DNA of 64,000 bases, taken from the NCBI RefSeq assembly GCF_058153355.1, contig NZ_CM177019.1; one strand, given 5' to 3'. Every line of letters begins with the position of its first letter. Within the stretch, counting starts at the first letter, position 1. A program made the translations under genes and the position numbers. Below the pieces are notes generated by a model. That model was not told the origin of the DNA and ran no database searches. It saw only the letters and a program-made list of their open reading frames with translations. Shown piece after piece: positions 7,674-38,015 of the stretch.

Positions 7674-10600
7674 TCATTCAAACCGTTGTTCCAATGCCTC
7701 ATCTTCCAATCGCTCGCGTTCTTTTTCCTTTTCAACCCAGTTAGTCAGTTTTTTATAAACAGCTCTAGCCGACTTAGAAATGTCTGCACGCTCGTGGGTG
7801 ACCAACCGGCCTATCGCTTCAACCCTGGGTTGCATCACGTTCGCACGACTACCGGACCATGATGAAGGTGCTACGTGTTCGGCAAAGATCTCAAGGACGG
7901 CTCGTGGCTCGGGTGAGGCTTCTAGAAATCTCAGAGCATCATCCTGCAAGCAAATAGGACTTTGCTCCCCGTCTTTTGACCATAGATTAATACCTGAAGC
8001 GACTGAAGCCCAAACCTGAGGGTCTTTAGTGGTCCCGCACCATTCAATCAAAATATCTACATCGATTTTCGCAATAGGAGACTGATGTGAATCATCATGA
8101 TTGATGAAATGCAGCCGCCTCTGTTGTTGATCCTCCGTACCATCAAAAATGCGACTGAGAAATTCTTTTGGCATCCATGCAGCGGTGATACCGATAGCGT
8201 CTTCGAAAGAAAAAATGTAGCCAAAATGCTCATCAACAACAGCAAAGATTGTATTCAGCCATTCTAGCTTTTCAGCCTCGTTGCCATCGAAGCGCAATGT
8301 GGCATCGATAACACGTTCCATTGCATAATCCAGATATCCGCCGAGATCGTTGTGATCTCTTTGGAACCTCTGGATTGCAGCGGATAGTCCAATTGTTCGT
8401 AGCGCAAGACCTAGTGTATCCGTAGCATCTCCTTTATCAGGTAGTTTCATACTCAATGCTTCCAATACTACTTCATCACCATTCGGTTTACTCAGCAGCC
8501 TTTGAGCAAGCTCGAGAACCCTGCTTTCTGGCAAATTAGAGAATTGCTCACCCCACAGAATTGCCCCATACATATGGGGCCGTATGTCAGAGTCATCCAG
8601 AAGCGACATGCAACGATCCAGATCGATTTCAGTAAACTCCTGCCAAGGATGTAGGTTGACTAATTCGAATCGAAGTTCGGAATGTTGTGCGCACTGATCG
8701 AGCAGTTCCTGCGCTAATGCTTTATCGATAGAATTCGTCTCTTCTATGAAACCTCGAATAACAGAAAAATCACTTTGAGATTTATGCTGTAGATTCATTT
8801 GAGTGATAAGTTTCTGCCAATAAACTCGTAGGTCAGGTGCTCCTTTAGCTAAGCCTTTACCGAATTCGACGCGATAGGGCATCCCATCTCGTAAGAATAA
8901 ATTAGGGCCTAACTCATCAAGTTCATGCGTGGATACTGCAAAGTCTTGCCCTAACTGGAACGCTTTTGCGTTAAGTATTTCCTTTATTTTTATGAATTTG
9001 TTAGGCCCCTCACGCTCAAAATCGGCATTCAGCGCCCAAAAATCACGCCCCTTACTGAGTACATAAGCCATAACTGCCGGAACCAAGTCATTAGGCTCCA
9101 ATTCTCGTTCCAATGTCACAAGTCCTTCCGGCAAAGGAGCTAAATCTTCGTTGTCATTTCTTTTGGTATGGGAAAAGTAAATTGTTGAGCGGACCGCTTT
9201 CCAGCCTTCACCCCAAGGACGATGGGCATGTAATTTGCGAGCCGCATCAATTAATTTTGACCTCATTCCTTCCTGACGCCAAATCCAGCGAAATTTATTA
9301 GCTAAGATCAGCCGAGCATCATCTTCAAGTTCGGGAACTCTTGAAGTTGCTAATCTCACCACAATGTCGATGAAGGTGATTAGCCACTCAACAAGCTCAT
9401 CGTAGCTGGGTCGAAATCCATAATCTCTTGGCCGAGCACCAAACTCATTAATCCCGAATCCTGTCCACGGTGGTCCGCCGAGAGCAGTTTCAAGCATTTC
9501 GAGCCCCAGCCTTCTACGTCCGGCCATACTTGAACCAATGCATTCATCCATGACCGCAACACGTTGTTCTAAAGAGGCATGGGTACCGGATAGATAAGGT
9601 TGGAAAAACCTCTTTATCTTATTTCGAGCCGAATCATAATTATTGCTCGCGCTTTCCTGATCTGCGATACGGATTAAGAGCTTAATGCATCGTTCAAAGT
9701 ATTTCGATTCATATGCAAGTAACTGCAACAATTTGATAATTGCTGTTCGTTGTGGGTTGTAGCGTGATTTAAAATGCTCAAAATTAGACGTAACAAGTGT
9801 TTCTTCAATCCGCTCAAGCAAAGCTCCCGGGGCGACTGGAGCGACATAATTCAGAATGCGTGTCGAAACATCATCTAGGTCTATTATTTTTCCAAGCAGC
9901 CCTTCGGGCTGTAACCAAGCTTCAACAATCTCTTTAGCCACAGCATGGCTGTGCAATAGTCCCAACCTGTGCGCGAACGACATCAATAATCGTTGTCGAT
10001 CCGGAGCTTCAAAGGTCGTCCTAAGTTGATCAATCGGAATACTATTAAGTGCAGATGCTGCCAACTTGTTAGCAATGGCATGGGGAAGGATGGCTCTCCA
10101 GTGGGATCTTTTCTGAACAACGTGACGTTCCATCAACTTCGTAACAGTTTTGAATAACTGGATTTTGGGATACCCAGAGAGCGCACCCAATATTTCCAGT
10201 TCATCGGTAGCTGCATCTGAACTAGATATTGAGAACGAATACACCAGTGACAATATTTCAGCTTGCTCCCGTAAATGGCCGTCGGGATGATTACGTTGTT
10301 CAAACAAGCGATTAAACAACTGCGCATCTGAAAGTAGGGCTAAACTCTCACCTTCCTCCACTCTTTCCGCTATAGCCAAAGCCACTCTTGCATTCCCATC
10401 TGCGAACTTTGCAATCCGACGGGCATTATTCTGACCAATAGAAGGGAAGCGACGGATAAGAAGTTGCTCTGCCACCTCTGGACCATCTGTCTCAATGTGG
10501 ATGACCTCAGTTGTCTGTGGTTTGTCATCCCTAATGTCGTACTCGATCGTGATGAGACTTACTTCTTTCCCTGCGGCTGATACTTTGCTGGCAAGCGAAG

Positions 10601-11525
10601 CATGGAGTTCTGATGGGCAATTATCAAGGATCATAATTGCTCGTCGGCCTTCAGCGAGCAGGTTATCAAGCATTGCTGTAGCCGACGGTACTGGCTCATA
10701 GCCAGTATCAACATAAATAGCTACTGTCCGGTCAAGCGCATCTGTTCCAACAGTATCATCAAAGAGCGCCTGAACGATTCGAGTCTTCCCAACACCAGAC
10801 AATCCTGTAATACGAACAGCCTTATTCGTCGAACGGATCAGTGCTCGCATTGGGTTAATTGCTTCATCAATTTTGAGTTTTTGCCCCTTTCCCGATGGTA
10901 AAGTAATGGTTACGCTTGGGGCTGAGATTAAAGTGTCTGTAACACCTTGTGGTGGATTGCTCCAGGCTCCGTAGGGTTGCCAACCGGAATACCCTTGCCC
11001 AAGCTTTGCTTTTACCCACAGCATGACTGATGGATGTTGGCGCAACCATTGGATGAGTTTGGAGCGGTCGTAGAAATCAAGATGAAGATAACTTTCGTTA
11101 GGATCATCTTTTACTGCATCTCTCATCGCTTTGAGACGATTCTTCTTTCCTGACGGCGAGCAATCATCACCCAGGCTGACAATGATGTAACTGCCTTGCT
11201 TTCTGGCTTGTTCAGAAATGATGGGAGAAAGTGCTTTTCCGGTGCCAATTTCCCTCTCGATTGCAGCCTTAGGCATCTTATGTTTCTTTGCCTGAAAGAC
11301 CGTATCAGGTCTTACAAGAAAGCCTGCTTTCAGTTGATCAACTGGAACCTGAACATGGATGTCAATTCCTCCGTCAGGGGCTGTAATTGAACCAGACCAA
11401 TTTACACATGCTGGGCTATGGCCGTGCATTGCCACTTCAGCTTCTGCTAGCCGAGCGATCAGCTCTTCCAACTGGATATCGGAGAGCCGAAGTAATTCGT
11501 CCTTTTCAATGTCAAAGATTGCCAC
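7674..11525 (-). CDS. Mrr-like (PD-(D/E)xK) nuclease / STAND P-loop NTPase / long helical C-terminal domain protein; Avs-like antiphage candidate
   Basis: 1283-aa ORF; N-terminal DGGID (residues 51-55) ... QAK (78-80) resembles the Mrr catalytic core; Walker A GLSGVGKT encoded at 10782..10805; Walker B-like AIMILDN; GNARVALAIA resembles the GxP motif of STAND NTPases. Confidence 0.7.
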   Translation of the reverse strand: MAIFDIEKDELLRLSDIQLEELIARLAEAEVAMHGHSPACVNWSGSITAPDGGIDIHVQVPVDQLKAGFLVRPDTVFQAKKHKMPKAAIEREIGTGKALSPIISEQARKQGSYIIVSLGDDCSPSGKKNRLKAMRDAVKDDPNESYLHLDFYDRSKLIQWLRQHPSVMLWVKAKLGQGYSGWQPYGAWSNPPQGVTDTLISAPSVTITLPSGKGQKLKIDEAINPMRALIRSTNKAVRITGLSGVGKTRIVQALFDDTVGTDALDRTVAIYVDTGYEPVPSATAMLDNLLAEGRRAIMILDNCPSELHASLASKVSAAGKEVSLITIEYDIRDDKPQTTEVIHIETDGPEVAEQLLIRRFPSIGQNNARRIAKFADGNARVALAIAERVEEGESLALLSDAQLFNRLFEQRNHPDGHLREQAEILSLVYSFSISSSDAATDELEILGALSGYPKIQLFKTVTKLMERHVVQKRSHWRAILPHAIANKLAASALNSIPIDQLRTTFEAPDRQRLLMSFAHRLGLLHSHAVAKEIVEAWLQPEGLLGKIIDLDDVSTRILNYVAPVAPGALLERIEETLVTSNFEHFKSRYNPQRTAIIKLLQLLAYESKYFERCIKLLIRIADQESASNNYDSARNKIKRFFQPYLSGTHASLEQRVAVMDECIGSSMAGRRRLGLEMLETALGGPPWTGFGINEFGARPRDYGFRPSYDELVEWLITFIDIVVRLATSRVPELEDDARLILANKFRWIWRQEGMRSKLIDAARKLHAHRPWGEGWKAVRSTIYFSHTKRNDNEDLAPLPEGLVTLERELEPNDLVPAVMAYVLSKGRDFWALNADFEREGPNKFIKIKEILNAKAFQLGQDFAVSTHELDELGPNLFLRDGMPYRVEFGKGLAKGAPDLRVYWQKLITQMNLQHKSQSDFSVIRGFIEETNSIDKALAQELLDQCAQHSELRFELVNLHPWQEFTEIDLDRCMSLLDDSDIRPHMYGAILWGEQFSNLPESRVLELAQRLLSKPNGDEVVLEALSMKLPDKGDATDTLGLALRTIGLSAAIQRFQRDHNDLGGYLDYAMERVIDATLRFDGNEAEKLEWLNTIFAVVDEHFGYIFSFEDAIGITAAWMPKEFLSRIFDGTEDQQQRRLHFINHDDSHQSPIAKIDVDILIEWCGTTKDPQVWASVASGINLWSKDGEQSPICLQDDALRFLEASPEPRAVLEIFAEHVAPSSWSGSRANVMQPRVEAIGRLVTHERADISKSARAVYKKLTNWVEKEKERERLEDEALEQRFE

Positions 11526-11972
11526 ATCCTAACCCTATTAAAGATACTGCGACTATATAAAAAGTTACCCTTATTCTAACCAATGACAGAAGGAATGTCC
11601 CTTAAACCGTTGCAATTAAAACCATTCTCATCAAGTAGTTAAGATTTTCTTACTCAGCACTATGATGTTGATCTTACCCACTTTGCGTCAAACTATTAGT
11701 ATGTATAAAGCACATTGCTGGCCTGATTAAGAAATGGATTGATATGTGAGTTAATGTCATTTATGAGCTTAAAGCTATTTTTAATCCCCTTTGCTTTACA
11801 ACTCTTTATATTATTTCATTCTTATTTACACCAATATTTATTGGTATGATGGTTTAATTTAATTCATTTTTGTTTTTTTGTTTGAAGCACATTGAAAGGA
11901 TATTATTATTTTCTCCTTCATGTTGAAAACAATTTAATTGGGCGGGTTTGGTTCGATATTATTAATATCTTT

Positions 11973-12000
11973 TTCAAAGAAATTATTTATATGGTATAAT
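11973..12000 (+). promoter_or_regulatory. putative sigma70 promoter with extended -10 (ttcaaa ... tggtataat)
   Basis: -35-like ttcaaa at 11973..11978, 16-bp spacer, TGnTATAAT at 11992..12000, within a long AT-rich tract upstream of the nuclease-helicase gene. Confidence 0.3.
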
Positions 12001-12032
12001 GCAATAAAATCGTATTGAGGTAAGAGGGTACT

Positions 12033-12227
12033 ATGAGTGGATCTTTTGATTTCTTAGCTGGTTCTTTGGCTCTTGAAAATAAACCTTTCCATATGCAGGT
12101 TGCAGAGCTAATAAAAAATAAGTTTCGTCATTGTGAGGGATATATTGGCTATAAGCTTGCAACTTTGGGACGGGCATCGGACTCCGATGTTCCAGATTTT
12201 ATCATTATACAAAAGAACATGGCATAA
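12033..12227 (+). pseudogene. 5' portion of nuclease-helicase gene (NERD/PD-(D/E)xK-like N-terminus), separated from the helicase frame by an apparent -1 frameshift
   Basis: 64-aa ORF with RBS gaggtaagaggg; ends ...SDVPDFIIIQKNMA; adding one A to the A4 run at 12211..12214 gives DFIIIQKEHGIILVDMVESK, continuous with the helicase ORF. Confidence 0.45.
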
Positions 12228-12238
12228 TTTTAGTTGAC

Positions 12239-14248
12239 ATGGTTGAAAGTAAGGTTTCTCGTGCGGATGAGGTGCAGGGGAATGAGGTTTGGTATTATGA
12301 GCATGGAGGTTCGAGTGTAGCAAGGAATTTTATTGTCGAGTTGTATGAGGAGGAGGTAAGAAGTAGATTAAAAAACGATGCAAATTTCTACAACAGAAGA
12401 AAAAAAACATGCACAGTTCCGATTACTAGCGCTGTTATTTTTTGTAAAAATAATAATAGTGAGATAGACAATTTCTATCAAGAGTATGCTGATTATGAAA
12501 GTTCAGCTATTGAATATGGCGAGATTGAGAATTGGTTAGATAGCGTTGAAGAAGGGTTCAATTGCGATTCTAAAGTTCTGGGGCGAATTTTTTCATTGTT
12601 AGAGGGGACGTTTATATATGAAAATAAAAAAATTCTCGATGAAGAACCACCCCTTAACACTGTGAATGATTATATCAAAAAATCTCTAAATATAACATTT
12701 AATCAAGATCACTCACAACGTATTGCTTCAATGCAACTAACCCCGGGCCCTCAGAGAATTCGTGGCTTGGCCGGAACAGGTAAGACGATAGTTCTTTCAT
12801 TAAAAGCTGCGATAACGCACAAAAAATTTCCAGATTATAAAATATTATATTTATTTAATACACAAAGCTTATATCAAAATGTGCAGAGTTCAATCGCCAG
12901 ATACTATACTTTAGAAGCCAAAAAAGCGCCAGATTTTGAATCGAATCTAAATGTCTTCCATGCGTGGGGTGGTAGGCAGAAACCGGGACTGTATTCATAT
13001 ATTTGCCAACAGTATGGATTAACTCCACTAACATTAGGAGATGTACGTGGAGCAAGTGATGCCTTAGCTGTCATATATGCAGAACTTCTCAAAAAAATCG
13101 GTGGTGATATAAAGCCTGAATATGATCTTATTTTAATAGATGAAGCCCAAGATTTTCCTAAAGAGTTGTTTGAAGTGGTCTTTAAACTAGCAAAGGGCAA
13201 ACCTCATGAGAAAAGGATCGTTTGGGCGTATGATGAATTCCAGTCATTGAAAGACACTCAAATTAAAGGTCCATCTGAGCTATTTGGTTTGGCCAAAGAT
13301 GGCACCCCAAATATGAGTGATGATGTTTTAGATGGATTCTATCCTGGTGACATAAAAAAAGATATTGTTTTATCCAATTGCTATAGGACTCCTCGTCCTG
13401 CTCTTATGACTGCTCACGGAGTAGCATTAGGACTTTATACTAATAAGCCGAATGAAATGTTTTATAACCATGATGAATGGAAAGCTATTGGCTATAAAGT
13501 TTTAAATCCTCAGACAAAAATCATTGCAAAAGGCAATGATGTGCAAATAGAGAGACCTAATGAAAATAGTCTAAATCTGTTGGAAGGAATTATGACAGAG
13601 CAGGGTAAGAGGGCCCTTAACCTTATCCAGACTAAGGTGGAAAATGATCGGGAAAGTCAATATGAATATATTGCAAGTAACATCAAACGTTTAATTGATG
13701 AGGAAAATGTCTCGCCTGAAGAAATAGTCATAATTAATTTGAAGTCCTCTAGTAACAAAGATGAGATGCTACGCATTCAATTCATCTTAAATAATTACGG
13801 TATTCACTCTGTAATTCCCGGTTACGTTGAAAGCTCAGATGTCTTTAAACCCAAGGGGTTCGTTACAATCACAACCCCTTTCAGGGCTAAAGGGAATGAA
13901 GCTAATATTGTATTTATTTTAAATAGCCAGTTAGTTGTTAATGATTTTTCATTAAGGATGCGTAATGCATTTTTTGTAGCAGTAACTCGAACAAGAGGAT
14001 GGTGTTATATTGTTGGTTATGGAGAAAAAATGCAAATGCTTGTGGACGAAATTTCAGGAATCAAAAGAGATTTCCCTATATTTAATTTCATTTGTCCTGA
14101 CCCTGATGATGTCAAAGCACGAAAAAGTTATCTCCACAAATCAGACTCTGAGATCAATGAGATGCAAAGAGTACTGGATTTAGTTAATAATAACGAAGAG
14201 TTAAGACGACTGCTACAGGAGCAGCTCATTGATAAGAAAGGAGATTAA
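12239..14248 (+). CDS. SF1 helicase (UvrD/RecD-like), probable C-terminal body of a nuclease-helicase fusion
   Basis: 669-aa ORF; Walker A GLAGTGKT at 12764..12787; Walker B LILIDEAQDF; FVAVTRTRGW motif VI-like. Confidence 0.7.
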   Translation: MVESKVSRADEVQGNEVWYYEHGGSSVARNFIVELYEEEVRSRLKNDANFYNRRKKTCTVPITSAVIFCKNNNSEIDNFYQEYADYESSAIEYGEIENWLDSVEEGFNCDSKVLGRIFSLLEGTFIYENKKILDEEPPLNTVNDYIKKSLNITFNQDHSQRIASMQLTPGPQRIRGLAGTGKTIVLSLKAAITHKKFPDYKILYLFNTQSLYQNVQSSIARYYTLEAKKAPDFESNLNVFHAWGGRQKPGLYSYICQQYGLTPLTLGDVRGASDALAVIYAELLKKIGGDIKPEYDLILIDEAQDFPKELFEVVFKLAKGKPHEKRIVWAYDEFQSLKDTQIKGPSELFGLAKDGTPNMSDDVLDGFYPGDIKKDIVLSNCYRTPRPALMTAHGVALGLYTNKPNEMFYNHDEWKAIGYKVLNPQTKIIAKGNDVQIERPNENSLNLLEGIMTEQGKRALNLIQTKVENDRESQYEYIASNIKRLIDEENVSPEEIVIINLKSSSNKDEMLRIQFILNNYGIHSVIPGYVESSDVFKPKGFVTITTPFRAKGNEANIVFILNSQLVVNDFSLRMRNAFFVAVTRTRGWCYIVGYGEKMQMLVDEISGIKRDFPIFNFICPDPDDVKARKSYLHKSDSEINEMQRVLDLVNNNEELRRLLQEQLIDKKGD

Positions 14249-14250
14249 AA

Positions 14251-14922
14251 TTGAATTTCTCATTAGTGCAGCAAAGCTTAAACCATGTCGAAGCACTTTT
14301 AAAACCTGTAACTCAACAAAAATTAATAGAGTTTAAAGAAAGAGAGAAGGTCATAAGTTGGACAAATAGGAAGCCAGGAATTTACAATGAAGTCTACTAT
14401 CCTATTGAATATCAATGTGTAATTGATGCAAGGCAGTACTCATTATTGCTTCGAGATGGCGATTTTTTTCAATTTTTTTATGAGTTTGATGCGAAAACTG
14501 GCAATCTGAAGAAAGCTAAGTTGGCTTTCTATCCCTCACCAATTGATTGTAGAAATTCGTTGGATGATCTCAATGAAGCAGCTGAATTTGCTTTTGATCA
14601 TAATGAAGAACTCTATAATCATCTTGATAATTGGATTTCGCTATTGGAAATAAAAAACTATTTTCCAGCAAATACATCTCAAGTTAGATTTGATTATGAT
14701 AGTACGGTTACTACACATGAGAAAGCACATCTGCAGTTTAGTAGTGTAAATAAACTTAGACTTCCGGCTGACTTTTTTCCTTTGCCATATGCATTTGTAT
14801 TAATGGTTTCTGATCTTATTAATGGATGCTCAAAGGTAGATGCTAGACATATAAGCTTTACTAAGAGAAACAGCCTAAGATCAAATGTTTCTAATAGAAT
14901 CATAACCTTGAAATCACAGTGA
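14251..14922 (+). CDS. hypothetical protein, helicase-coupled partner (223 aa)
   Basis: TTG start 3 bp after the helicase stop, AGGAG RBS 7 nt upstream; AT-rich; no motif recognised. Confidence 0.5.
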   Translation: MNFSLVQQSLNHVEALLKPVTQQKLIEFKEREKVISWTNRKPGIYNEVYYPIEYQCVIDARQYSLLLRDGDFFQFFYEFDAKTGNLKKAKLAFYPSPIDCRNSLDDLNEAAEFAFDHNEELYNHLDNWISLLEIKNYFPANTSQVRFDYDSTVTTHEKAHLQFSSVNKLRLPADFFPLPYAFVLMVSDLINGCSKVDARHISFTKRNSLRSNVSNRIITLKSQ

Positions 14923-14928
14923 ATTAAC

Positions 14929-14962
14929 AAGCCTCTTTTATAAGGATATAAGAGGCTTGTTA
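14929..14962. terminator. bidirectional hairpin terminator (aacaagcctctt ... aagaggcttgtt)
   Basis: perfect 12-bp inverted repeat between the convergent partner gene and integrase. Confidence 0.45.
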
Positions 14963-15372
14963 TTATTTCGCTAAATCTGATCACTGTCGAGAATTGATTG
15001 ATTTTTTGTGATTATTTATTCCATTCTGAGTTCATTGCCGATTTTATATGTATGTATTTTGTATCGGCTTATCTTGGCTTATTAAGTCTAGCATCACACA
15101 ATGCTTTTCAGGAAATCATCTTACCTATTAACCATATTATTACCGGCCCAACATTTCTCGCATTTACAGCTGGTAGCTCCTGTGTGTAAACGCTATTAAT
15201 CTCATACTCATTGGTTTAATATTAACTTTGAACTTCTGGAGTGCAGATCACCAATCCTAATATTACTACTAAATAGCTGCGCCTAATAACGCGACACCCG
15301 CCGTTTACTGTCTGGTGGCTTAACCTGCAAGGGCTGGCTGAAAGTGGGACACTATTCCGCGCAGCTATTTAG

Positions 15373-16614
15373 TCACCCAACTAGCTTCATTCCTTTTATC
15401 CCACCTTCAATCATGCTTCCACGATCCGCTGCCATCACAAAATTTGCCCACCATTGCATCATCGGGCGACGCTGTTCCAGGTAATCGCTGCGGTTATAAG
15501 CACGACGAACCTCATTCTTATCCACATGGGCCAATGCTGCCTCAATGACATCAGGCGGAAAGCCTTGTTCATTAAGAGCCGTACTGGCAATTGATCTCAG
15601 ACCATGCGAAACAAGCACACCACCAAAACCTGCGCGTTTTAGTGAGGCGTTAACAGTCTGACTGTTCATTGGCTGGTTGGGCTTGATACGGCTGGGAAAG
15701 ATAAATTCTCGGTTGCCGCTTAGCGGTTTCATCATCTCCAGCACAGCTATTGCTTCATCTGACAATGGAACAGTATGATCGCGGTTCATTTTCATGCGTG
15801 CTGCAGGAATCTTCCACTCTCGCGCTTCTATGTCTACCTCTTCCCAGCGAGCTTCAGCCGCTTCGGCAGGGCGGGTAATAGTAAGAAGTTGCCACATGAA
15901 CAGGCAGCGTGTGGAAAGGCTAATGCTGGCTGTTCGCATTGTCTGCATCAATTGAGGTAGCTGATCCGGTCGAATGCTGGGCATGTTCTTTTTCTGAGGC
16001 TTCTCGAAGGCTTTACCGATATTAACGCTGGGAACAGCATCAATCAGCCCTGTGTTTTGGGCATAGATCATGACCTCATTAATGCGCTGACACAGGCGAC
16101 GAACGGTTTCCAGTGCTCCTCTGGCCTGAACTGGTTGGACGGCCTGAACCAGTGTGTGTGCTTTAATATCTGTAACGCTAATGTCGCCAATTGCAGGAAA
16201 GACATCTCTCTCAAGAGAGCGCCAGATATCCTCTGCGTAGTCTTCGGTCACACTGGCTTTCTTCACATTCCACCAACGTTCAGCCACGAGCTGGAAAGTA
16301 TTGGTTTTAGCTTCCAGCGAACTGCGAAGTTGTTCTTGTTGATGTTCCTGGGGATCAATTTGTTTCGCCAGAAGAGAGCGGGACTCTGCCCGATAGTTTC
16401 GGGCATCGGCAAGGGTAACTGACGGGTAGGGGCCTATGCTCTTCTTCGCACGTTTCTTAGTGACAGGGCGAATGTAGCGAAACTGCCAGATTTTACTTCC
16501 GCTGGATTTGATGAGTAGCTCAAGGCCATCACCATCATAGAGAACGTAGTCCGCTTCTTTGGGTTTGGCGGATTCGATTTCTTTAACGGATAGAGGTTTG
16601 GTTTGTCTTGCCAT
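15373..16614 (-). CDS. intA: P4-type tyrosine integrase (IntA-like) next to ssrA
   Basis: 413-aa ORF; C-terminal catalytic region with HGLRS ... EAALAH ... RAY pattern; position immediately 5' of the tmRNA 3' end. Confidence 0.85.
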   Translation of the reverse strand: MARQTKPLSVKEIESAKPKEADYVLYDGDGLELLIKSSGSKIWQFRYIRPVTKKRAKKSIGPYPSVTLADARNYRAESRSLLAKQIDPQEHQQEQLRSSLEAKTNTFQLVAERWWNVKKASVTEDYAEDIWRSLERDVFPAIGDISVTDIKAHTLVQAVQPVQARGALETVRRLCQRINEVMIYAQNTGLIDAVPSVNIGKAFEKPQKKNMPSIRPDQLPQLMQTMRTASISLSTRCLFMWQLLTITRPAEAAEARWEEVDIEAREWKIPAARMKMNRDHTVPLSDEAIAVLEMMKPLSGNREFIFPSRIKPNQPMNSQTVNASLKRAGFGGVLVSHGLRSIASTALNEQGFPPDVIEAALAHVDKNEVRRAYNRSDYLEQRRPMMQWWANFVMAADRGSMIEGGIKGMKLVG

Positions 16615-16818
16615 TGCCGGGTTTCCATAGTTTTAGGCACCTCAAAAACAATAAAGCTTTATGAGGTGCCTAACAAGGTGCCTAAAAGGTTCGGATTTAA
16701 TTAGTTCTCTTCGGACTTCGCGGGACAAATTGAGGGCACAAAAAAGCCCGCAGGGCTTGCGCCGTGCGGACTCTTAGGACTTCATCGGATGACTCTGGTA
16801 ATCACCGATGGAGAATTT

Positions 16819-17181
16819 TGGTGGAGCTGGCGGGAGTTGAACCCGCGTCCGAAATTCCTACATCCTCGGTACTACATGCTTAGTCAGTCTTTACATTCGC
16901 TTGCCAGCTGCGGACGGACACGCCACTAACAAACTAGCCTGATTAAGTTTTAACGCTTCAACCCCAGGCAGGGCTTCCACGCGATCTCTTTTGGGTTTGA
17001 CCTCTCTTGATCCCCGTCCTAAGAGCGGAGGCTAGGGAGAGAGGGCTCTAAGCAGGTTATTAAGCTGCTAAAGCGTAGTTTTCGTCGTTTGCGACTATTT
17101 TTTGCGGCTTTTTACGAGGCCAACCGCCCCTCGGCATGCACCTTGGGTTTCGCAAATCCCGTCGAATCCAGAATCAGCCCC
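16819..17181 (-). ncRNA. ssrA: tmRNA (SsrA)
   Basis: reverse complement begins GGGGCTGATTCTGGATTCGACGGG and ends ...GTTCAACTCCCGCCAGCTCCACCA; tag-encoding region present. Confidence 0.92.
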
Positions 17182-18009: not shown

Positions 18010-18486
18010 ATGATATTATTTGTTGGATTTTTGTTGATGGAAATTGTTATGCCTCAGATTAGCCGGACCGCACTGGTACCCTACAGCGCGGAGCAAATGT
18101 ATCAGTTAGTGAATGACGTTCAGTCTTATCCTCAGTTTTTGCCGGGTTGTACCGGAAGTCGGATTCTGGAGTCCACCCCTGGGCAGATGACCGCGGCGGT
18201 AGATGTCTCTAAGGCTGGGATCAGCAAAACGTTTACTACCCGCAACCAGTTGACCAGTAACCAAAGTATTCTTATGAATCTGGTGGATGGGCCGTTCAAG
18301 AAATTGATCGGTGGATGGAAGTTTACGCCGCTGAGCCAGGAGGCGTGTCGTATCGAGTTTCATCTCGACTTTGAGTTTACCAATAAGTTGATTGAACTCG
18401 CCTTTGGCCGCGTGTTTAAAGAGCTGGCGGCTAATATGGTCCAGGCTTTTACGGTTCGTGCGAAAGAGGTTTACAGTGCCAGGTAA
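18010..18486 (+). CDS. ratA: ribosome association toxin RatA (YfjG/PasT)
   Basis: 158-aa ORF; conserved synteny next to smpB. Confidence 0.8.
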
Positions 18487-18766
18487 AATTGCCGTTGAGG
18501 TGGCTTATGCTCTACCTGAGAAGCAGTACCTGCAGCGCGTGACGCTGCAGGAGGGCGCGACGGTTGAAGAAGCTATTCGCACCAGTGGCTTGCTGGAATT
18601 GCGTACCGATATCGATTTAACTAAAAACAAAGTCGGCATTTACAGCCGTCCGGCAAAACTGAGCGATACCGTGCATGATGGCGATCGGGTGGAGATTTAT
18701 CGTCCTCTCATTGCCGATCCGAAAGAGCTTCGCAGGCAACGAGCAGAAAAATCAGCGAATAAATAA
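18476..18766 (+). CDS. ratB: RatB/YfjF family protein (GTG start; ORF track extends upstream to 18392)
   Basis: ~96-aa product from GTG at 18476 overlapping the ratA 3' end. Confidence 0.65.
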
Positions 18767-18781
18767 CAGACAGAAAAAGGT

Positions 18782-18792
18782 GCTCATTGAGC
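18782..18792. repeat. IS4 target-site duplication, left copy (gctcattgagc)
   Basis: identical 11-mer at 20219..20229. Confidence 0.7.
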
Positions 18793-20218
18793 TAATGCCG
18801 ATCAGTTAAGGATCAGTTGACCGATCCAGTGGCTGTGTAAGAATCCGGAAACGCTCACTTGTTTCCGGATTTTTTTATGCACATTGGACAGGCTCTTGAT
18901 CTGGTATCCCGTTACGATTCTCTGCGTAACCCACTGACTTCTCTGGGGGATTACCTCGACCCCGAACTCATCTCTCGTTGCCTTGCCGAATCAGGTACTG
19001 TAACGCTACGCAAGCGCCGTCTTCCCCTCGAAATGATGGTCTGGTGTATTGTTGGCATGGCGCTTGAGCGTAAAGAACCTCTTCACCAGATTGTGAATCG
19101 CCTGGACATCATGCTGCCGGGCAATCGCCCCTTCGTTGCCCCCAGTGCCGTTATTCAGGCCCGCCAGCGCCTGGGAAGTGAGGCTGTCCGCCGCGTGTTC
19201 ACGAAAACAGCGCAGCTCTGGCATAACGCCACGCCGCATCCGCACTGGTGCGGCCTGACCCTGCTGGCCATCGATGGTGTGTTCTGGCGCACACCGGATA
19301 CACCAGAGAACGATGCAGCCTTCCCCCGCCAGACACATGCCGGGAACCCGGCGCTCTACCCGCAGGTCAAAATGGTCTGCCAGATGGAACTGACCAGCCA
19401 TCTGCTGACGGCTGCAGCCTTCGGCACGATGAAGAACAGCGAAAATGAGCTTGCTGAGCAACTTATAGAACAAACCGGCGATAACACTCTGACGTTAATG
19501 GATAAAGGTTATTACTCACTGGGACTGTTAAATGCCTGGAGCCTGGCGGGAGAACACCGCCACTGGATGATACCTCTCAGAAAGGGAGCGCAATATGAAG
19601 AGATCAGAAAACTGGGTAAAGGCGATCATCTGGTGAAGCTGAAAACCAGCCCGCAGGCACGAAAAAAGTGGCCGGGACTGGGAAATGAAGTGACAGCCCG
19701 CCTGCTGACCGTGACGCGCAAAGGAAAAGTCTGCCATCTGCTGACGTCGATGACGGACGCCATGCGCTTCCCCGGAGGAGAAATGGCGGATCTGTACAGT
19801 CATCGCTGGGAAATCGAACTGGGATACAGGGAGATAAAACAGACGATGCAACTGAGCAGGCTGACGCTGAGAAGTAAAAAGCCGGAGCTTGTGGAGCAAG
19901 AGCTGTGGGGTGTCTTACTGGCTTATAATCTGGTGAGATATCAGATGATTAAAATGGCGGAACATCTGAAAGGTTACTGGCCGAATCAACTGAGTTTCTC
20001 AGAATCATGCGGAATGGTGATGAGAATGCTGATGACATTGCAGGGCGCTTCACCGGGACGTATACCGGAGCTGATGCGCGATCTTGCAAGTATGGGACAA
20101 CTTGTGAAATTACCGACAGGAAGGGAAAGGGCCTTCCCGAGAGTGGTAAAGGAGAGGCCCTGGAAATACCCCACAGCCCCGAAAAAGAGCCAGTCAGTTG
20201 CTTAACTGACTGGCATTA
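18793..20218 (+). mobile_element. insertion sequence IS4, complete (1426 bp)
   Basis: terminal inverted repeats taatgccgatcagttaag (left) and cttaactgactggcatta (right); encodes full-length transposase. Confidence 0.88.
18877..20205 (+). CDS. insG: IS4 transposase InsG
   Basis: 442-aa product from ATG at 18877 ([14 protein letters not shown]...). Confidence 0.88.
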
Positions 20219-20229
20219 GCTCATTGAGC
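20219..20229. repeat. IS4 target-site duplication, right copy (gctcattgagc)
   Basis: identical to 18782..18792. Confidence 0.7.
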
Positions 20230-20263
20230 ACCTTTTTTAACGTCTTTGAGAGCAACTTTATTA

Positions 20264-20605
20264 TTAGTTACCACTCAGCGCAGGTTTGTTATCAATGTTG
20301 GTCAACACCCCGCTACTGTTAAAGGTCAGCGTCAGCGTTTGCTGCGTTACACCTTCATGACCTGGTTGCTGGCGGAAGACATAGAACCAGGTATTCGTAC
20401 CAAATGGATCGGACATCAGCGGTGTACCCAATGCGTACGCAACTTGTTGTTGCGTCATGCCAACACGTATTTTGGATACGTCGTTAGCGGTCAGATAGTT
20501 CCCCTGGTTGATGTCAGGACGGTAAACCACTCGCTCCAGAGTGGAACAGCCTGCGGTCAACATCAATAGTACTGCTGCTGCAGCAGTCAGCGTTTTACAG
20601 CGCAT
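20264..20605 (-). CDS. bamE: outer membrane assembly lipoprotein BamE (SmpA)
   Basis: 113-aa ORF with lipobox LTAGCS. Confidence 0.9.
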
Positions 20606-20753
20606 AGTGATTTGATTCCTTTTCGGGCCCGAGCAGTACGTGGCTCATCTGTAATATGCCGATGATAATAGACCTTTCATCACTTTAAAACCTTTTGCTT
20701 TCCGGTCTTACGGCGTTTTGCTGTTTACTCTGACCGTGAAGCAGGAAAAAAGT

Positions 20754-22415
20754 TTACGCCGCAAGCAGTTCTTTCGCATTCGCCAGTGTGTTACGTGTGA
20801 CTTCACTGCCACCAAGCAGGCGCGCCAACTCTTGTAACCGCGCTTTTTTATCCAGGGATTGCATATGCGTTTCTGTCATCGCACCATCGGTTTCTTTGCT
20901 GACAAAATAGTGTTGATGACCACATCCCGCGACTTGTGGCAGGTGGGTAACACACATCACCTGAGTTGATTCGCCAAGTTGACGTAGCAGTTTGCCGACA
21001 ACTGCCGCTGTTGGGCCGCTAATCCCTACATCCACTTCATCAAAAATCAGTGCCGGGGTTTCCATTTTACGCGCGGTAATGACCTGGATTGCCAATGCGA
21101 TGCGGGACAACTCACCACCGGATGCGACTTTGGCAATAGGCTGCATTGGCTGACCTGGGTTGGTGGTTACCCGAAACTCAATACGATCAGCGCCGTCAGC
21201 GCCCAGGTGATGCTCGTCAAATTTAACATCGATCGTAAACTGCCCATGTGGCATAGAGAGTGCATGCATACTATCGGTGATCAGCTGTGCTAACTCATTT
21301 GCATAATGCTGGCGTTGCTGGTGTAACGCGCGCGCCGTTTCCAGTGCCTGCTGATGATGTTTCGTTACCGCCAGCGCGAGCGTTTCTTGTGAGTCGGCCT
21401 GATCGTCCAGTTGCTGCTGTTCTTCCAGTAGCGACTGGTAATACTGTGGCAATGCCTCAGGGCTGACGTGATGTTTACGTGCCAGCGAAATCTGTTTTGA
21501 GATACGCTGTTCAAGTTCAAACAGTCGGTTGGGATCGAGATCCAGACGATCGCAGTAGTGGCGCAGTTCGTCGCTGGCTTCAGCAATCTGGATGGTAGCT
21601 TCTTCCAGCATATCAAGTACGCCGGACAGTTTGCTGTCCATGCCAATCAATTCGCTCACCAGTTGTTTAGCCGTGTAAAGCTGACTTTGCAGGTTTGCGT
21701 CTTCACCGTCGGCCATTAATGCCAATGCATTCTGGCTGGTGGTCAGCAATTGACCGCTGTTCGCCAGACGTTTGTACTCTTCGTCGATTTGCTCAAACTC
21801 TCCGGGCTGAGGATTAAATTCGTTAAGTTCTTTTAATTGGTATTGCAGCAGCTCCGCACGAGCGGCGCGTTCCTGACTTAACTGTTGATGATGCGCGAGG
21901 TCGCGGCAGCTTTGATGCCACAACTGATAACGTGCGGTCATTTCCTGAAGCAGAGAGGTTTCATTAGCATAGCCATCAAGCAGGAATTTTTGGTGCTCGG
22001 GTTTGGTGAGTAATTGATGGGCGTGCTGACCATGGATCTGAATGAGCAACTGGCCCAGTTCGCGCAGTTGTGACAGTGGAACAGCTGTACCGTTGATAAA
22101 ACCACGAGAGCGACCATCGCTACTGATTACGCGACGAAGCAGGCATTCACGGCCATCTTCCAGTTGGTTTTCTTCCAGCCAGCGCAGTGCTGCGGGTGTA
22201 TCTTTCAGAGAAAAACGGGCGCACAGATCTGCGCGAGCAGCGCCGGTACGCACCATGTCGGCTTCAGCGCGACCGCCGAGACAAAGGCCCAGGGCATCTA
22301 TTGCAATAGATTTACCCGCGCCAGTCTCGCCGGTGATTACGGTCATGCCGCTGTGAAAATCAATCTCAAGCTCACGAACGATAGCAAAGTTGCTGATGGT
22401 CAGTTGTGCCAACAT
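20754..22415 (-). CDS. recN: DNA repair protein RecN
   Basis: 553-aa ORF; Walker A GETGAGKS; SMC-like coiled coil. Confidence 0.92.
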
Positions 22416-22500
22416 AGTTGTTTTCCTGTATGAAAAACCATTACTGTTATTGCGTACAGTATAAACTGGTTTTATATACAGTAAAGAGGCTGGCGTAAAA

Positions 22501-24096
<1,596 letters not shown>

Positions 24097-24150
24097 TTTC
24101 TGTTTTCGTCATAAGTCACGGCCCTGCATGCGAATGCCGGGCCGTTTTCG

Positions 24151-25413
24151 TTACTCCGCCACACTCTCACGCAGCGGTTTCACAGGAAAAACTTTTACCT
24201 GCTTAATCATATTGTCCTGTACATCGAGAATATCGATATCGTACTCGCCAATACGCACGCGAGTTCCTGCGACAGGAATCTCTTCCAGTGCCTCAAGAAT
24301 GACGCCATTAACCGTTCGTGCATCATCTTCCGGTAGATGCCAGTTAAAGGCTTTGTTGATTTCCCGCACGTTGGCAGTGCCATCGATAATCACCGAACCG
24401 TCGTTTTGCGGCGTGACCTCTTCGGCGAGCGTTGGCGACATCGACGTGGTGAAATCACCAACAATCTCTTCGAGAATATCTTCGACCGTCACCAGACCCT
24501 GAATATCTCCATACTCGTTGACGACCAGGCCGACTTTCTTTTTGTTGCGCTGAAACTTCACCAGCTGCGTGCTGAGCGGCGTACCTTCCGGGACAAAATA
24601 GATTTCGTCCGCGGCGCGTAGCATGGTTTCTTTGGTGAACTCTTTTTTCTCCGACATCAACCGCCAGGCTTCACGCACACGCAGCATACTGATGGCGTCG
24701 TCCAGCGAGTCACGGTAGAGCACGATGCGTCCGTGAGGTGAGTGGGAGAGTTGGCGGAGAATCGATTTCCAGTCATCGTTGATATCAATACCGATAATTT
24801 CACTGCGCGGCACCATGATGTCATCGACAGTCATTTTTTCCAGATCGAGTACCGACAACAGCATATCCTGATTGCGACGGGAAATTTGTGACCGCGATTC
24901 GTGCACAATGGTGCGTAATTCTTCTTTGCTTAAAGAGCCACTGACCATGATATCGGTTTTGATGCCCATCATGCGCATTAACATGCGGGTAATAGCGTTC
25001 AGCAACCAGACCAGCGGCATCATCAAAATTTGCAGCGGCGCCAGCAGAAAACTACTTGGATAGGCGACTTTTTCCGGGTACAGCGCGGCAATGGTTTTCG
25101 GCAATACTTCAGCAAAAACCAGTACGACAAAAGTTAGTACACCAGTCGCAATTGCCACGCCCGCATCCCCGTACAAACGCATCCCCACAATAGTACCGAG
25201 CGCGGAGGCAAGAATATTGACCAGGTTATTGCCGATTAACACCAGGCTTATCAGGCGGTCTGGCTTACGCAGCAATTTTTCGACACGTTTGGCCGAGCGA
25301 TTACCCTGTTTCGCCATATGCCGCAGACGATAGCGGTTGAGGGTCATCATTCCGGTTTCGGACCCGGAAAAATAGGCTGAAATGACCACCATGATGATCA
25401 GAATAATGATCAA
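24151..25413 (-). CDS. yfjD: UPF0053 inner membrane protein YfjD (CNNM/CBS-CorC family); start codon uncertain
   Basis: 420-aa ORF; membrane N-terminus, CBS pair, CorC C-terminus. Confidence 0.8.
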   Translation of the reverse strand: MIIILIIMVVISAYFSGSETGMMTLNRYRLRHMAKQGNRSAKRVEKLLRKPDRLISLVLIGNNLVNILASALGTIVGMRLYGDAGVAIATGVLTFVVLVFAEVLPKTIAALYPEKVAYPSSFLLAPLQILMMPLVWLLNAITRMLMRMMGIKTDIMVSGSLSKEELRTIVHESRSQISRRNQDMLLSVLDLEKMTVDDIMVPRSEIIGIDINDDWKSILRQLSHSPHGRIVLYRDSLDDAISMLRVREAWRLMSEKKEFTKETMLRAADEIYFVPEGTPLSTQLVKFQRNKKKVGLVVNEYGDIQGLVTVEDILEEIVGDFTTSMSPTLAEEVTPQNDGSVIIDGTANVREINKAFNWHLPEDDARTVNGVILEALEEIPVAGTRVRIGEYDIDILDVQDNMIKQVKVFPVKPLRESVAE

Positions 25414-25457
25414 CGTAGTAGTAGAAATGTGTTCCAGGGGAAACTCCTTTTCTGGGA

Positions 25458-26249
25458 TTAGCTGATTAACTGCTGGACAATTCGGCTACCGAAGTAGGCC
25501 AGTGTCAGAATGACCGCACCCGCAACGTTAAACCAGACGACGCGGCGTCCACGCCATCCTTCATGATAATGTCCCCACAGCAGCACAATATAGACAAACC
25601 ACGCCACGATAGAGAGCACGGCCTTGTCGATATTTTCCATGCTAAATAAGTTGTGCATGTAGAACAGACCAGTGCAAAGAGTGAGCGTTAACAGCACCAC
25701 GCCAATCTGCGTGATGTGGAACATTTTACGCTCAATACTCATCAACGGCGGCATTTCCTGGTTAAACGCCAGCTTCTTGTTCTTCAGTTGGTAATCAATC
25801 CACGCCAGTTGCAGCGCGTACAGGGCAGCGATAATCAGCGTGGCATAGGAAAAGAGCGATAAGCCAATGTGAACCAGCATCCCAGGCGTTGCTTCCAGAT
25901 GGGTGATGTATTCATTGGGCATAAAGGTTGCCAGCGCCAGGTTGATAAGCGCAAAGGCATAGACAATGGGTAGCAGTAACCAGCCACGATTGCGGGAAGC
26001 CACGATGGTCATTACCGTACAGATCATCAAACTGACCAGCGAACCAACGTTCAGTAAGCTGAGGTTTTGTCCGCTATCACCGTCGGGCAAGATGCGGGCT
26101 TCCAGAGCGATTGCGTGGCAGACCAGCGCGATGACCGCAGAAATAATAGCCATGCGCCGCCAGCCGCCGTTTTTTTGCAGCAGACCGGGAACAATCAGCG
26201 CAAGACTGACGGAGTAGGCGACAAGCGCGAGCAGAGCAAAAACGGGCAT
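25458..26249 (-). CDS. ypjD: inner membrane protein YpjD (CcmC/CcsA-like); ORF extends to 26324
   Basis: polytopic membrane ORF; start placed at MPVFALLALVAY... Confidence 0.75.
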   Translation of the reverse strand: MPVFALLALVAYSVSLALIVPGLLQKNGGWRRMAIISAVIALVCHAIALEARILPDGDSGQNLSLLNVGSLVSLMICTVMTIVASRNRGWLLLPIVYAFALINLALATFMPNEYITHLEATPGMLVHIGLSLFSYATLIIAALYALQLAWIDYQLKNKKLAFNQEMPPLMSIERKMFHITQIGVVLLTLTLCTGLFYMHNLFSMENIDKAVLSIVAWFVYIVLLWGHYHEGWRGRRVVWFNVAGAVILTLAYFGSRIVQQLIS

Positions 26250-26415
26250 AGTAATGTCGACAGTTTGAGCAATAAGAAAGAGAAGCAGTATAGCGTCAGG
26301 TGAACGCTGCTCCAACCGTTGCATAACAACAAAGACGCCTTCATGTTATACTGCGGCAAAATACTGATGATGTGTCGCGATTGCGGCCAACCGTTTCCAC
26401 CCCAGGCGAGAGACA

Positions 26416-27777
26416 ATGTTTGATAATTTAACCGATCGTTTGTCGCGCACGCTGCGCAATATCAGTGGCCGTGGACGCCTCACTGAAGACAACGTAAAAG
26501 ATACGCTGCGCGAAGTGCGCATGGCGCTGCTGGAGGCGGACGTCGCCCTGCCGGTAGTGCGTGAGTTTATCAATCGCGTAAAAGAGAAAGCGGTTGGTCA
26601 TGAAGTTAATAAGAGCCTGACGCCGGGGCAGGAGTTCGTCAAAATCGTCCGTAACGAACTGGTTGCGGCGATGGGCGAAGAGAACCAGACCCTGAACCTG
26701 GCTGCGCAACCGCCTGCGGTGGTGCTGATGGCGGGCCTGCAAGGTGCCGGTAAAACAACCAGCGTGGGTAAACTCGGTAAGTTCCTGCGTGAGAAGCACA
26801 AGAAAAAAGTGCTGGTGGTTTCTGCCGACGTTTATCGTCCGGCGGCAATCAAACAGCTGGAGACGCTGGCAGAGCAGGTGGGCGTTGATTTCTTCCCTTC
26901 TGATGTTGGTCAGAAGCCGGTAGATATCGTTAACGCGGCGCTGAAAGAAGCCAAACTGAAATTCTACGACGTGCTGCTGGTGGATACCGCCGGTCGTCTG
27001 CACGTTGACGAAGCGATGATGGACGAGATCAAACAGGTCCATGCATCGATTAATCCGGTTGAAACCCTGTTTGTGGTTGATGCCATGACTGGTCAGGATG
27101 CGGCCAATACGGCAAAAGCATTCAATGAAGCGTTACCGCTGACCGGTGTGGTACTGACTAAAGTCGACGGCGATGCTCGTGGCGGTGCGGCGCTCTCGAT
27201 TCGTCACATCACTGGCAAACCGATCAAATTCCTCGGCGTTGGCGAGAAAACCGAGGCGCTGGAGCCGTTCCATCCGGACCGTATCGCTTCCCGTATTCTC
27301 GGCATGGGCGACGTACTGTCGCTGATCGAAGATATCGAAAGCAAAGTTGACCGCGCGCAGGCAGAGAAATTAGCCAGCAAGCTGAAAAAAGGCGACGGCT
27401 TCGATCTCAACGACTTCCTTGAGCAACTGCGCCAGATGAAAAATATGGGCGGCATGGCTAGCCTGATGGGCAAACTGCCGGGTATGGGGCAGATCCCGGA
27501 TAACGTCAAGTCGCAGATGGACGATAAAGTGCTGGTGCGTATGGAAGCCATCATCAACTCGATGACGATGAAAGAGCGCGCTAAGCCAGAAATCATCAAA
27601 GGTTCGCGTAAACGCCGTATCGCTGCCGGTTGCGGTATGCAGGTGCAGGACGTTAACCGTCTTCTGAAACAGTTCGACGACATGCAGCGCATGATGAAGA
27701 AAATGAAGAAGGGCGGGATGGCGAAGATGATGAGAAGTATGAAGGGGATGATGCCGCCGGGATTTCCTGGTCGCTAA
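26416..27777 (+). CDS. ffh: signal recognition particle protein Ffh
   Basis: 453-aa ORF; GLQGAGKTT P-loop; methionine-rich C-terminus. Confidence 0.93.
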   Translation: MFDNLTDRLSRTLRNISGRGRLTEDNVKDTLREVRMALLEADVALPVVREFINRVKEKAVGHEVNKSLTPGQEFVKIVRNELVAAMGEENQTLNLAAQPPAVVLMAGLQGAGKTTSVGKLGKFLREKHKKKVLVVSADVYRPAAIKQLETLAEQVGVDFFPSDVGQKPVDIVNAALKEAKLKFYDVLLVDTAGRLHVDEAMMDEIKQVHASINPVETLFVVDAMTGQDAANTAKAFNEALPLTGVVLTKVDGDARGGAALSIRHITGKPIKFLGVGEKTEALEPFHPDRIASRILGMGDVLSLIEDIESKVDRAQAEKLASKLKKGDGFDLNDFLEQLRQMKNMGGMASLMGKLPGMGQIPDNVKSQMDDKVLVRMEAIINSMTMKERAKPEIIKGSRKRRIAAGCGMQVQDVNRLLKQFDDMQRMMKKMKKGGMAKMMRSMKGMMPPGFPGR

Positions 27778-27835
27778 ATGACCTTATGCGACAGAGTTAT
27801 TAACTGCTGATTGCATTTTCTCCAGAAATCAGTAA

Positions 27836-28162
<327 letters not shown>

Positions 28163-28180
28163 TCTGTCACGGTGGTCATG

Positions 28181-28729
28181 ATGAGCAAACAACTCACCGC
28201 GCAAGCACCTGTTGATCCCATCGTTTTGGGAAAAATGGGTTCGTCTTACGGTATTCGTGGGTGGCTCAGAGTGTTTTCTTCCACCGAAGACGCCGAAAGC
28301 ATTTTTGACTATCAGCCTTGGTTTATCCAGAAGGCGGGTCAGTGGCAGCAAGTCCAGCTGGAAAGCTGGAAGCACCACAATCAGGACATGATCATCAAGC
28401 TGAAAGGCGTTGACGATCGTGATGCGGCGAACCTGCTGACGAATTGTGAAATTGTCGTGGATTCATCGCAGCTGCCTCAGCTTGAAGAGGGTGACTACTA
28501 CTGGAAAGACCTGATGGGCTGCCAGGTAGTAACCACTGAAGGCTACGATCTCGGTAAAGTCGTCGATATGATGGAAACCGGATCTAATGACGTTCTCGTC
28601 ATTAAGGCAAACCTGAAAGATGCGTTTGGTATCAAGGAACGTCTCGTACCGTTCCTCGATGGGCAGGTTATCAAGAAAGTCGATCTCACTACTCGTTCAA
28701 TCGAAGTAGATTGGGATCCTGGTTTTTAA
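28181..28729 (+). CDS. rimM: ribosome maturation factor RimM
   Basis: 182-aa product from [10 protein letters not shown]... Confidence 0.88.
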
Positions 28730-28759
28730 ACCACCGGATAAACGGTAAAAGACGGCGCT

Positions 28760-37180: not shown

Positions 37181-37193
37181 CAGCTCAAGGCTG
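37181..37193. repeat. target-site duplication of IS4 derivative, left copy (cagctcaaggctg)
   Basis: identical 13-mer at 38003..38015. Confidence 0.7.
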
Positions 37194-38002
37194 TAATGCC
37201 AGTCAGTTAAGCAACTGACTGGCTCTTTTTCGGGGCTGTGGGGTATTTCCAGGGCCTCTCCTTTACCACTCTCGGGAAGGCCCTTTCCCTTCTTGTCGGT
37301 AATTTCACTGGTTGTCCCATACTTGCAAGATCGCGCATCAGCTCCGGTATACGTCCCGGTGAAGCGCATGGCGTCCGTCATCGACGTCAGCAGATGGCTG
37401 GTCAGTTCCATCTGGCAGACCATTTTGACCTGCGGGTAGAGCGCCGGGTTCTCGGCATGTGTCTGGCGGGGGAAGGCTGCATCGTTCTCTGGTGTATCCG
37501 GTGTGCGCCAGAACACACCATCGATGGCCAGCAGGGTCAGGCCGCACCAGTGCGGATGCGGCGTGGCGTTATGCCAGAGCTGCGCTGTTTTCGTGAACAC
37601 GCGGCGGACAGCCTCACTTCCCAGGCGCTGGCGGGCCTGAATAACGGCACTGGGGGCAACGAAGGGGCGATTGCCCGGCAGCATGATGTCCAGGCGATTC
37701 ACAATCTGGTGAAGAGGTTCTTTACGCTCAAGCGCCATGCCAACAATACACCAGACCATCATTTCGAGGGGAAGACGGCGCTTGCGTAGCGTTACAGTAC
37801 CTGATTCGGCAAGGCAACGAGAGATGAGTTCGGGGTCGAGGTAATCCCCCAGAGAAGTCAGTGGGTTACGCAGAGAATCGTAACGGGATACCAGATCAAG
37901 AGCCTGTCCAATGTGCATAAAAAAATCCGGAAACGAGTGAGCGTTTCCGGATTCTTACACAGGCACTGGATCGGTCAACTGATCCTTAACTGATCGGCAT
38001 TA
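37194..38002 (-). mobile_element. internally deleted IS4 derivative (809 bp) with both terminal inverted repeats intact; transposase truncated
   Basis: ends taatgccagtcagttaag and cttaactgatcggcatta; aligned to the full IS4 at 18793..20218 it lacks two internal segments. Confidence 0.8.
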
Positions 38003-38015
38003 CAGCTCAAGGCTG
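38003..38015. repeat. target-site duplication of IS4 derivative, right copy (cagctcaaggctg)
   Basis: identical to 37181..37193. Confidence 0.7.

Follow-up and report, generated by a model that had tools for sequence, protein, structure and literature searches.

Between the convergent genes ratB and bamE, the stretch of DNA analysed here (64 kb, the window) carries a complete copy of the insertion sequence IS4. How did the element come to lie exactly there, and what becomes of the 3' ends of the transcripts that run towards it from either side? On the left, ratA (18010..18486, plus strand; a 158-aa ORF with same-locus annotation in K-12 and other strains) is followed by ratB, also named yfjF, of the RnfH family (18476..18766, plus strand), which starts with GTG and corresponds to the yfjF CDS of 291 nt that occupies the same place in L001, L002 and K-12. 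These genes are faced by bamE (20264..20605, minus strand; 113 aa), with recN (minus strand) further out on the bamE side, and smpB and the tmRNA gene on the other side. The RefSeq annotation of the locus in K-12 and other strains agrees with ratB on the plus strand and bamE on the minus strand, the convergent arrangement given in the initial annotation of the window, and each of the two genes is the last of its own transcription unit. A scan of the whole window with Rfam gave no hit to a known RNA family, either within IS4 or between ratB and bamE. The answer that we favour, and hold to be quite probable, is that a functional-looking IS4 transposed into an intrinsic terminator common to ratAB and bamE and working in both directions, and that the ends of the element supply replacement stops.

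A complete IS4 flanked by a perfect duplication

The element extends from 18793 to 20218 (plus strand, 1426 bp) and differs by four nucleotides from the K-12 IS4 and by three from the commonest variant in E. coli. Its transposase gene runs unbroken from the ATG at 18877 to the stop at 20205 (plus strand) and encodes 442 aa, in line with the complete element and intact transposase initially proposed. The termini are the 18-bp inverted repeats IRL, TAATGCCGATCAGTTAAG (18793..18810, plus strand), and IRR, TAATGCCAGTCAGTTAAG (20201..20218, minus strand). They had been described as intact; they are present and match each other at 16 of 18 positions, being imperfect in the same way as the ends of the K-12 IS4, with which the first and last 30 nt of the window copy, both repeats included, are identical. 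On either side stands the 11-bp target-site duplication GCTCATTGAGC, with its left copy at 18782..18792 and its right copy at 20219..20229. As first reported, it is a direct repeat: the 64-kb window has these two copies and no other, with 0.08 occurrences expected by chance and two matches in none of 100 shuffles, figures that rule out a chance origin.

The transposase scores 304.5 bits against NCBIfam NF033592 (IS4 family transposase; cut-off 115) and matches the Pfam families Nterm_IS4 (PF13006, E = 7.6e-33) and DDE_Tnp_1 (PF01609, E = 1.1e-31). In its triad, assigned from the position of the motifs, 75 and 104 residues separate D133, D209 and E314, and residues 307-321 hold a Y(2)R(3)E(6)K (YREK) motif. 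Spacers and motif agree with how De Palmenaer et al. 2008 (PMC2266710) define the IS4 family, by D(60-110)D(100-150)E together with Y(2)R(3)E(6)K; the 11-bp duplication lies inside the range of 10-13 bp given for IS4 in Table 1 of the same paper. Three residues differ from K-12 InsG (A304, L326 and G415 instead of G, R and R); among the copies compared, the glycine at position 415 occurs only in that of the window, the copies of K-12, L002 and L003 having arginine, and it may bear on activity. The K-12 element (insG, b4278; NC_000913.3 4502090-4503515) is alike in its 1426 bp, its 442-aa transposase and the AAA and TTT tracts that flank it, with a duplication of 12 bp; it differs in its chromosomal location and in a site without obvious palindrome. 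The element is thus IS4 itself, not a new one, and its intact ORF and ends make it functional-looking at the level of sequence.

The empty site and its terminator

Deletion of IS4 and of one copy of the repeat yields AAAAAGGTGCTCATTGAGCACCTTTTTT (within ...ACAGAAAAAGGTGCTCATTGAGCACCTTTTTTAACG). A comparison with the empty site of K-12 had been proposed, and the same site is indeed found there: it reads AAAAAAGGTGCTCAATGAGCACCTTTTTT and equals the window reconstruction but for one extra A. Rebuilt over 300 nt, the empty site occurs uninterrupted in 5422 of the 5425 matching complete E. coli genomes, K-12 included. The reconstructed hairpin has a folding energy of -17.6 kcal/mol on the ratB strand (z = -6.4) and of -16.0 kcal/mol on the bamE strand (z = -5.0), and none of the 200 shuffles against which it was scored equalled it. 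On each strand a U-run comes after the stem, which is flanked by A5 and T6 tracts. On the ratB side the A-tract begins 8 nt past the stop codon and the stem 13 nt past it; on the bamE side the run begins about 26 nt past the stop codon.

The fold bears out the hairpin-plus-T-run terminator that the initial annotation had rebuilt by excision, and for one direction a mapped transcript end does so too. In supplementary file 1 of the K-12 Term-seq study (Adams et al. 2021, PMC7815308), the searchable text gives an RNA 3' end at 2754002 (+), which is 2 nt beyond the T-run of the empty site in the bamE direction; a 3' end in the ratB direction was not found in this searchable supplementary text. The shared terminator is therefore well supported for bamE, by the hairpin together with the Term-seq end, and is supported for ratB by sequence alone. 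Bidirectional terminators between convergent E. coli genes, in which one hairpin element shapes both 3' ends, are recounted in bioRxiv 10.1101/2022.10.23.513370, which describes Ju et al. 2019. The empty ratB/bamE site shares their layout and has a mapped 3' end in the bamE direction; it carries in addition canonical A and U tracts whichever strand is read, and so also resembles an ordinary intrinsic terminator both ways.

How IS4 chooses its targets

Why would IS4 have entered the middle of this terminator? The duplication is framed by two arms, an A5 tract plus 3 bp (GGT) on the left (18774..18781) and ACC plus a T6 tract on the right (20230..20238), giving the layout AAAAA-GGT-[11 bp]-ACC-TTTTTT. 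The window holds a second IS4, of 809 bp and with two internal deletions, which together with its flanking 13-bp duplication CAGCTCAAGGCTG spans 37181..38015 (minus strand; IS4 part 37194-38002). Its target, AAAAAAACGG[CAGCTCAAGGCTG]CCGTTTT, is again a hairpin, the terminator downstream of bamD and upstream of raiA, and in 335 E. coli genomes the same bamD-terminator site holds an IS4 of full length. Beyond the window, we sampled ten sites from GCA_900448835.1, the crr/pdxK site that is common in E. coli, and the site of the K-12 resident copy.

All 13 distinct sites have the same order, namely A-tract, N3, duplication of 11-14 bp, N3, T-tract, or A5-N3-[11-14 bp]-N3-T5. In the profile of the half-sites, counted outward from the duplication, A fills 22-26 of 26 from -8 to -4, rising to 26/26 at -6 and 25/26 at -5; a pyrimidine at -3, G at -2 and, as the first duplicated base, C are favoured more weakly. 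The duplication always starts 3 bp inside each tract, and its length follows the spacing of the tracts. Outside E. coli, the first 30 nt of IS4 were used for an exact-pattern scan of species-representative genomes, which gave mainly half-sites at contig ends of Kosakonia oryziphila; in strain REICA_142, with at least 16 IS4 ends, AAAA stands at the expected distance in 10 of 16 left flanks against a background of 4%, the left flanks alone being used because the right ones were unpaired. Once its insertion sequences are removed, the window contains 13 sites of the form A4-N17-20-T4, where 3.4 are expected. The stricter pattern A5-N17-20-T5 was tried and proved too narrow: the bamD site, although occupied, has T4 and escapes it.

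Tracts and palindromes coincide in most of these sites, and IS4 might recognise a DNA hairpin or cruciform, not the A and T tracts. Nine of the 12 folded sites form strong hairpins (-16.5 to -20.7 kcal/mol), located downstream of genes, e.g., at adhE/tdk, eno, rpoD/mug, degS/mdh and crr/pdxK; the 3 bp beside the duplication are complementary in 10 of the 12; and within the window IS4 occupies two of three A4-N17-20-T4 sites of the hairpin type and none of the ten others. Against this reading, the remaining three folded sites, two of them intragenic and one between ravA and kup, keep the tracts with no hairpin to speak of (-1.4 to -6.6 kcal/mol), and the K-12 resident site, which lies outside the folded set, retains AAA and TTT around a sequence with no obvious palindrome. 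The stem sequences vary, moreover, while the A residues at -6 and -5 are nearly invariant, on a sample of some 13 sites. We consider recognition of the palindrome unlikely, though still a serious rival. Since sites without a hairpin keep their tracts, the tracts are more likely to be the primary signal, small as the sample of about 13 sites is, and the apparent targeting of terminators may be a by-product of tract recognition.

The tract rule reads as follows. IS4 integrates where an A-tract and a T-tract stand 17-20 bp apart and cuts 3 bp inside each of them, leaving a duplication of 11-14 bp, 6 less than the spacing of the tracts. Most such pairs of tracts in enterobacterial chromosomes are palindromic terminators that follow a gene and in many cases lie between two convergent ones. 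A target consensus AAA-N20-TTT was reportedly put forward for IS4 by Mayaux and colleagues in 1984, based in part on a copy that had entered the pheST attenuator terminator. The literature searched yielded nothing on the AAA-N20-TTT consensus, and on an IS4-specific link to terminators general statements only. For the IS4 subgroup, De Palmenaer et al. 2008 (PMC2266710) describe conserved target arms, variable duplications of 10-13 bp and a pseudo-palindromic target, all of which agree with what we see; unlike that description, the present 13 sites sharpen the rule to the spaced form given above and include duplications of 14 bp. The initial annotation mentioned neither that the ratB/bamE site is a typical IS4 target nor that it is a recurrent hot spot.

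Loss of the terminator and predicted 3' ends

The two halves of the hairpin now lie 1.4 kb apart with its central 11 bp duplicated, as expected if insertion at the tracts doubles the hairpin centre and parts the halves. What remains at the junctions folds at -5.6 and -4.4 kcal/mol (z of about -0.5), no better than shuffled sequence, and the junction on the ratB side lacks a U-run. The separation of the terminator halves, already part of the initial annotation, is thus upheld, and the original terminator is unable to form on either the ratAB or the bamE transcript. In the outward direction there are only 4-bp mini-hairpins (-4.0 kcal/mol), 3 nt from the flanking U-runs. We considered outward-facing termination through these duplicated half-sites and dismissed it, judging them too weak; a low level of transposase read-out antisense to bamE may occur.

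Both ends of IS4 carry a terminator-like hairpin that faces inward, a feature absent from the initial annotation. The left one (18839..18876, plus strand, with U7 up to the transposase ATG; core UCCGGAAAC/GUUUCCGGA) folds over 18839-18874 with -18.8 kcal/mol (z = -5.8) and a core stem of 10-11 bp. The right one (20182..20214, minus strand) overlaps IRR and the transposase stop; its 11-bp stem with a 4-nt loop (20214-20189, minus strand) reaches -19.6 kcal/mol (z = -3.35) and is followed by UCUUUUU, an interrupted U-run. Counted inward from its own end of the element, the left hairpin occupies nt 47-84 and the right one nt 5-37. A consensus terminator scan lists the right hairpin as terminator-like and leaves the left one out, presumably because the maximal stem of the latter reaches 18874, into the T-run, and the hairpin thereby fell foul of the criterion set for T-runs; we retained it as terminator-like on the strength of its fold. 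Ahead of the left hairpin, a consensus scan placed a promoter-like TTGACC-16-AAGAAT with TG (18817..18844, plus strand; 9/12 matches), the putative transposase promoter as far as its sequence can tell. A start about 7 nt past it would fall in the 5' arm of the left hairpin, and a transposase mRNA beginning there would leave that hairpin to be formed by outside transcripts only.

Transcripts of ratAB and bamE that enter IS4 would each meet an inward-facing hairpin and U-run. The 3' end of ratAB would come to lie about 110 nt past the ratB stop instead of about 35 (a shift of about +75 nt), near 18875, and that of bamE about 82 nt past its stop instead of about 53-56 (about +30 nt), near 20182. 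The same structures would shield the transposase gene from outside transcription. With terminator-like hairpins at both ends of the element, short extensions of the 3' UTRs are the likely outcome, not read-through: from the folding models, we infer that the IS4 hairpins terminate ratAB and bamE transcripts, so that 3' ends shift rather than termination being lost, and the net effect on the host would be close to neutral.

The insertion could instead abolish termination, with ratAB read-through activating IS4, bamE transcripts running antisense into the element, and the stability or expression of ratAB or bamE altered as a consequence. Such an outcome would be easy to reconcile with the destruction of the original hairpin, with junction remnants no better than shuffles, with the missing U-run on the ratB side and with the interruption in the U-run of the right IS4 hairpin. 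Yet any transcript that passed the junctions would run into strong inward hairpins with U-runs within the first 84 nt of the element; other strains tolerate IS4 at ratB/bamE in either orientation; and since bamE and ratB close their transcription units, no downstream gene would come under polarity. We regard loss of termination as improbable, and return to replacement of the split terminator by the ends of IS4.

Precedents and implications

Protection of transposase genes has precedents. In IS10 and IS50, fold-back inhibition protects the transposase gene from outside transcription. As a general finding, bioRxiv 10.1101/2025.07.22.666184 describes terminator-like sequences inside and just upstream of insertion sequences. 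The predicted arrangement of IS4 would resemble the fold-back of IS10 and IS50, and the terminators upstream of IS200/IS605, in placing a hairpin before the transposase start that only outside transcripts form. Unlike the IS10/IS50 structures, that of IS4 is modelled as a full intrinsic terminator, with a core stem of 10-11 bp and U7, and a second inward-facing structure is predicted at the other end.

As an event, the insertion is an ordinary one, of a known element into a site typical of it; the target preference of IS4 is broadly documented, and protection against read-through is known from other insertion sequences. Our additions, which are modest and may not all be new, are 1) the explicit link of the A/T-tract rule to two-way terminators; 2) the relation by which duplication length is tract spacing minus 6; and 3) the two inward-facing hairpins of IS4, whose predicted folds suggest that they replace the terminator split by the insertion. 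Taken together, these might make of IS4 a 'terminator-hopper', i.e., an element with a tract-measuring transposase, a duplication length set by the target and inward terminators replacing the one destroyed, the insertions of which are nearly harmless and leave the transposase insulated. We put this forward tentatively, as a reading that falls just short of an even chance. If true, it would explain how IS4 could expand in Shigella and in Kosakonia with little gene disruption. If the IS4 hairpins do terminate, a mobile element would be mending regulatory damage of its own making. For the ratB/bamE locus the insertion is of little importance, the predicted effect being a slightly longer 3' UTR on each side. 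More generally, IS4 copies mark two-way terminators, which makes IS4 positions predictable.

Recurrence of the insertion

The ratB/bamE site is occupied in only three complete E. coli genomes. BEN5202 and TW10690 carry IS4 there in the orientation of the window and with the identical 11-bp duplication, their copies differing from that of the window at 12 and 9 nt, respectively; in MB31 the identical 11 bp have received an IS4 that points the other way. That the insertions of the window, BEN5202 and TW10690 go back by descent to one ancestral event, with no recurrent hot spot, is very improbable: shared orientation and identical duplication speak for it, and against it stand the 9 and 12 nt by which those copies differ from a window copy that is only 3 nt from the common variant, flanks set apart by an indel in the A-tract and by a divergence of about 2%, and the independent, opposite insertion of MB31. 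The site has thus been struck independently at least twice, and probably three times. Because the same sites are struck repeatedly in unrelated strains, shared IS4 positions are unreliable markers of common descent. Comparison of IS4 copies across strains could be clouded by gene conversion from one IS copy to another.

As to the origin of the window, none of 5426 complete E. coli genomes exceeds 99.0% identity to its core DNA. Five insertion sequences, IS4 among them, have expanded in every Shigella species and in some lineages of enteroinvasive E. coli (EIEC; PMC7373316), and the window may derive from a lineage of Shigella/EIEC type with such an expansion.

A second, deleted IS4 and an unoccupied candidate target

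The window holds a second IS4 (37194-38002, minus strand; 37181-38015 with the flanking 13-bp duplication), which is 809 bp long and has undergone two internal deletions, IS4 nucleotides 605-940 and 972-1252 being absent. It lies in the hairpin 3' of bamD, upstream of raiA. Of 5425 E. coli genomes, 335 carry IS4 at this same site as an undeleted, full-length copy. Besides the two sites that hold an IS4, only one other in the window combines the A4-N17-20-T4 layout of an IS4 target with a strong hairpin: positions 43327-43352 (AAAACGAGTCCTTCGGGGCTCGTTTT, -14.9 kcal/mol), about 400 bp upstream of an rRNA operon and free of IS4. As for the complete copy, its transposase (18877-20205) has a glycine at residue 415, where the copies of K-12, TW10690, and SMS-3-5 have an arginine.

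IS4 ends in other assemblies

At least 16 IS4 left ends were found at contig ends of Kosakonia oryziphila REICA_142 (loci L006-L021). They match the E. coli element exactly over the 30 nt searched and point to an expansion of IS4 in a second genus, Kosakonia. Another left end is held by a 265-nt contig (L023) labelled Methylobacterium mesophilicum NBRC 15688. The 40 nt that flank it are identical to the site of the resident IS4 of K-12, and contamination of this assembly by laboratory E. coli is the most likely origin of the contig.

Lineage of the strain and other features of the window

The core genes from recN to tyrA (20230-36000) reach at most 99.0% identity with any complete E. coli genome in our collection, and the strain probably represents a lineage absent from it, possibly a Shigella or EIEC-like one. 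The island adjoining the tmRNA gene (1-16800), which encodes an integrase, a YfjI-family protein, a GTPase, and a DEAD/DEAH helicase, is covered to at least 80% in only one of 5426 complete E. coli genomes, at 96.5% identity. All Rfam matches in the window are ordinary for the chromosomal region concerned: the tmRNA itself (16819-17181), the Phe leader (36378-36503), RyfD (40630-40768), a complete rRNA operon with StyR-44 and a spacer tRNA (43764-48776), and ES036 (60503-60545).
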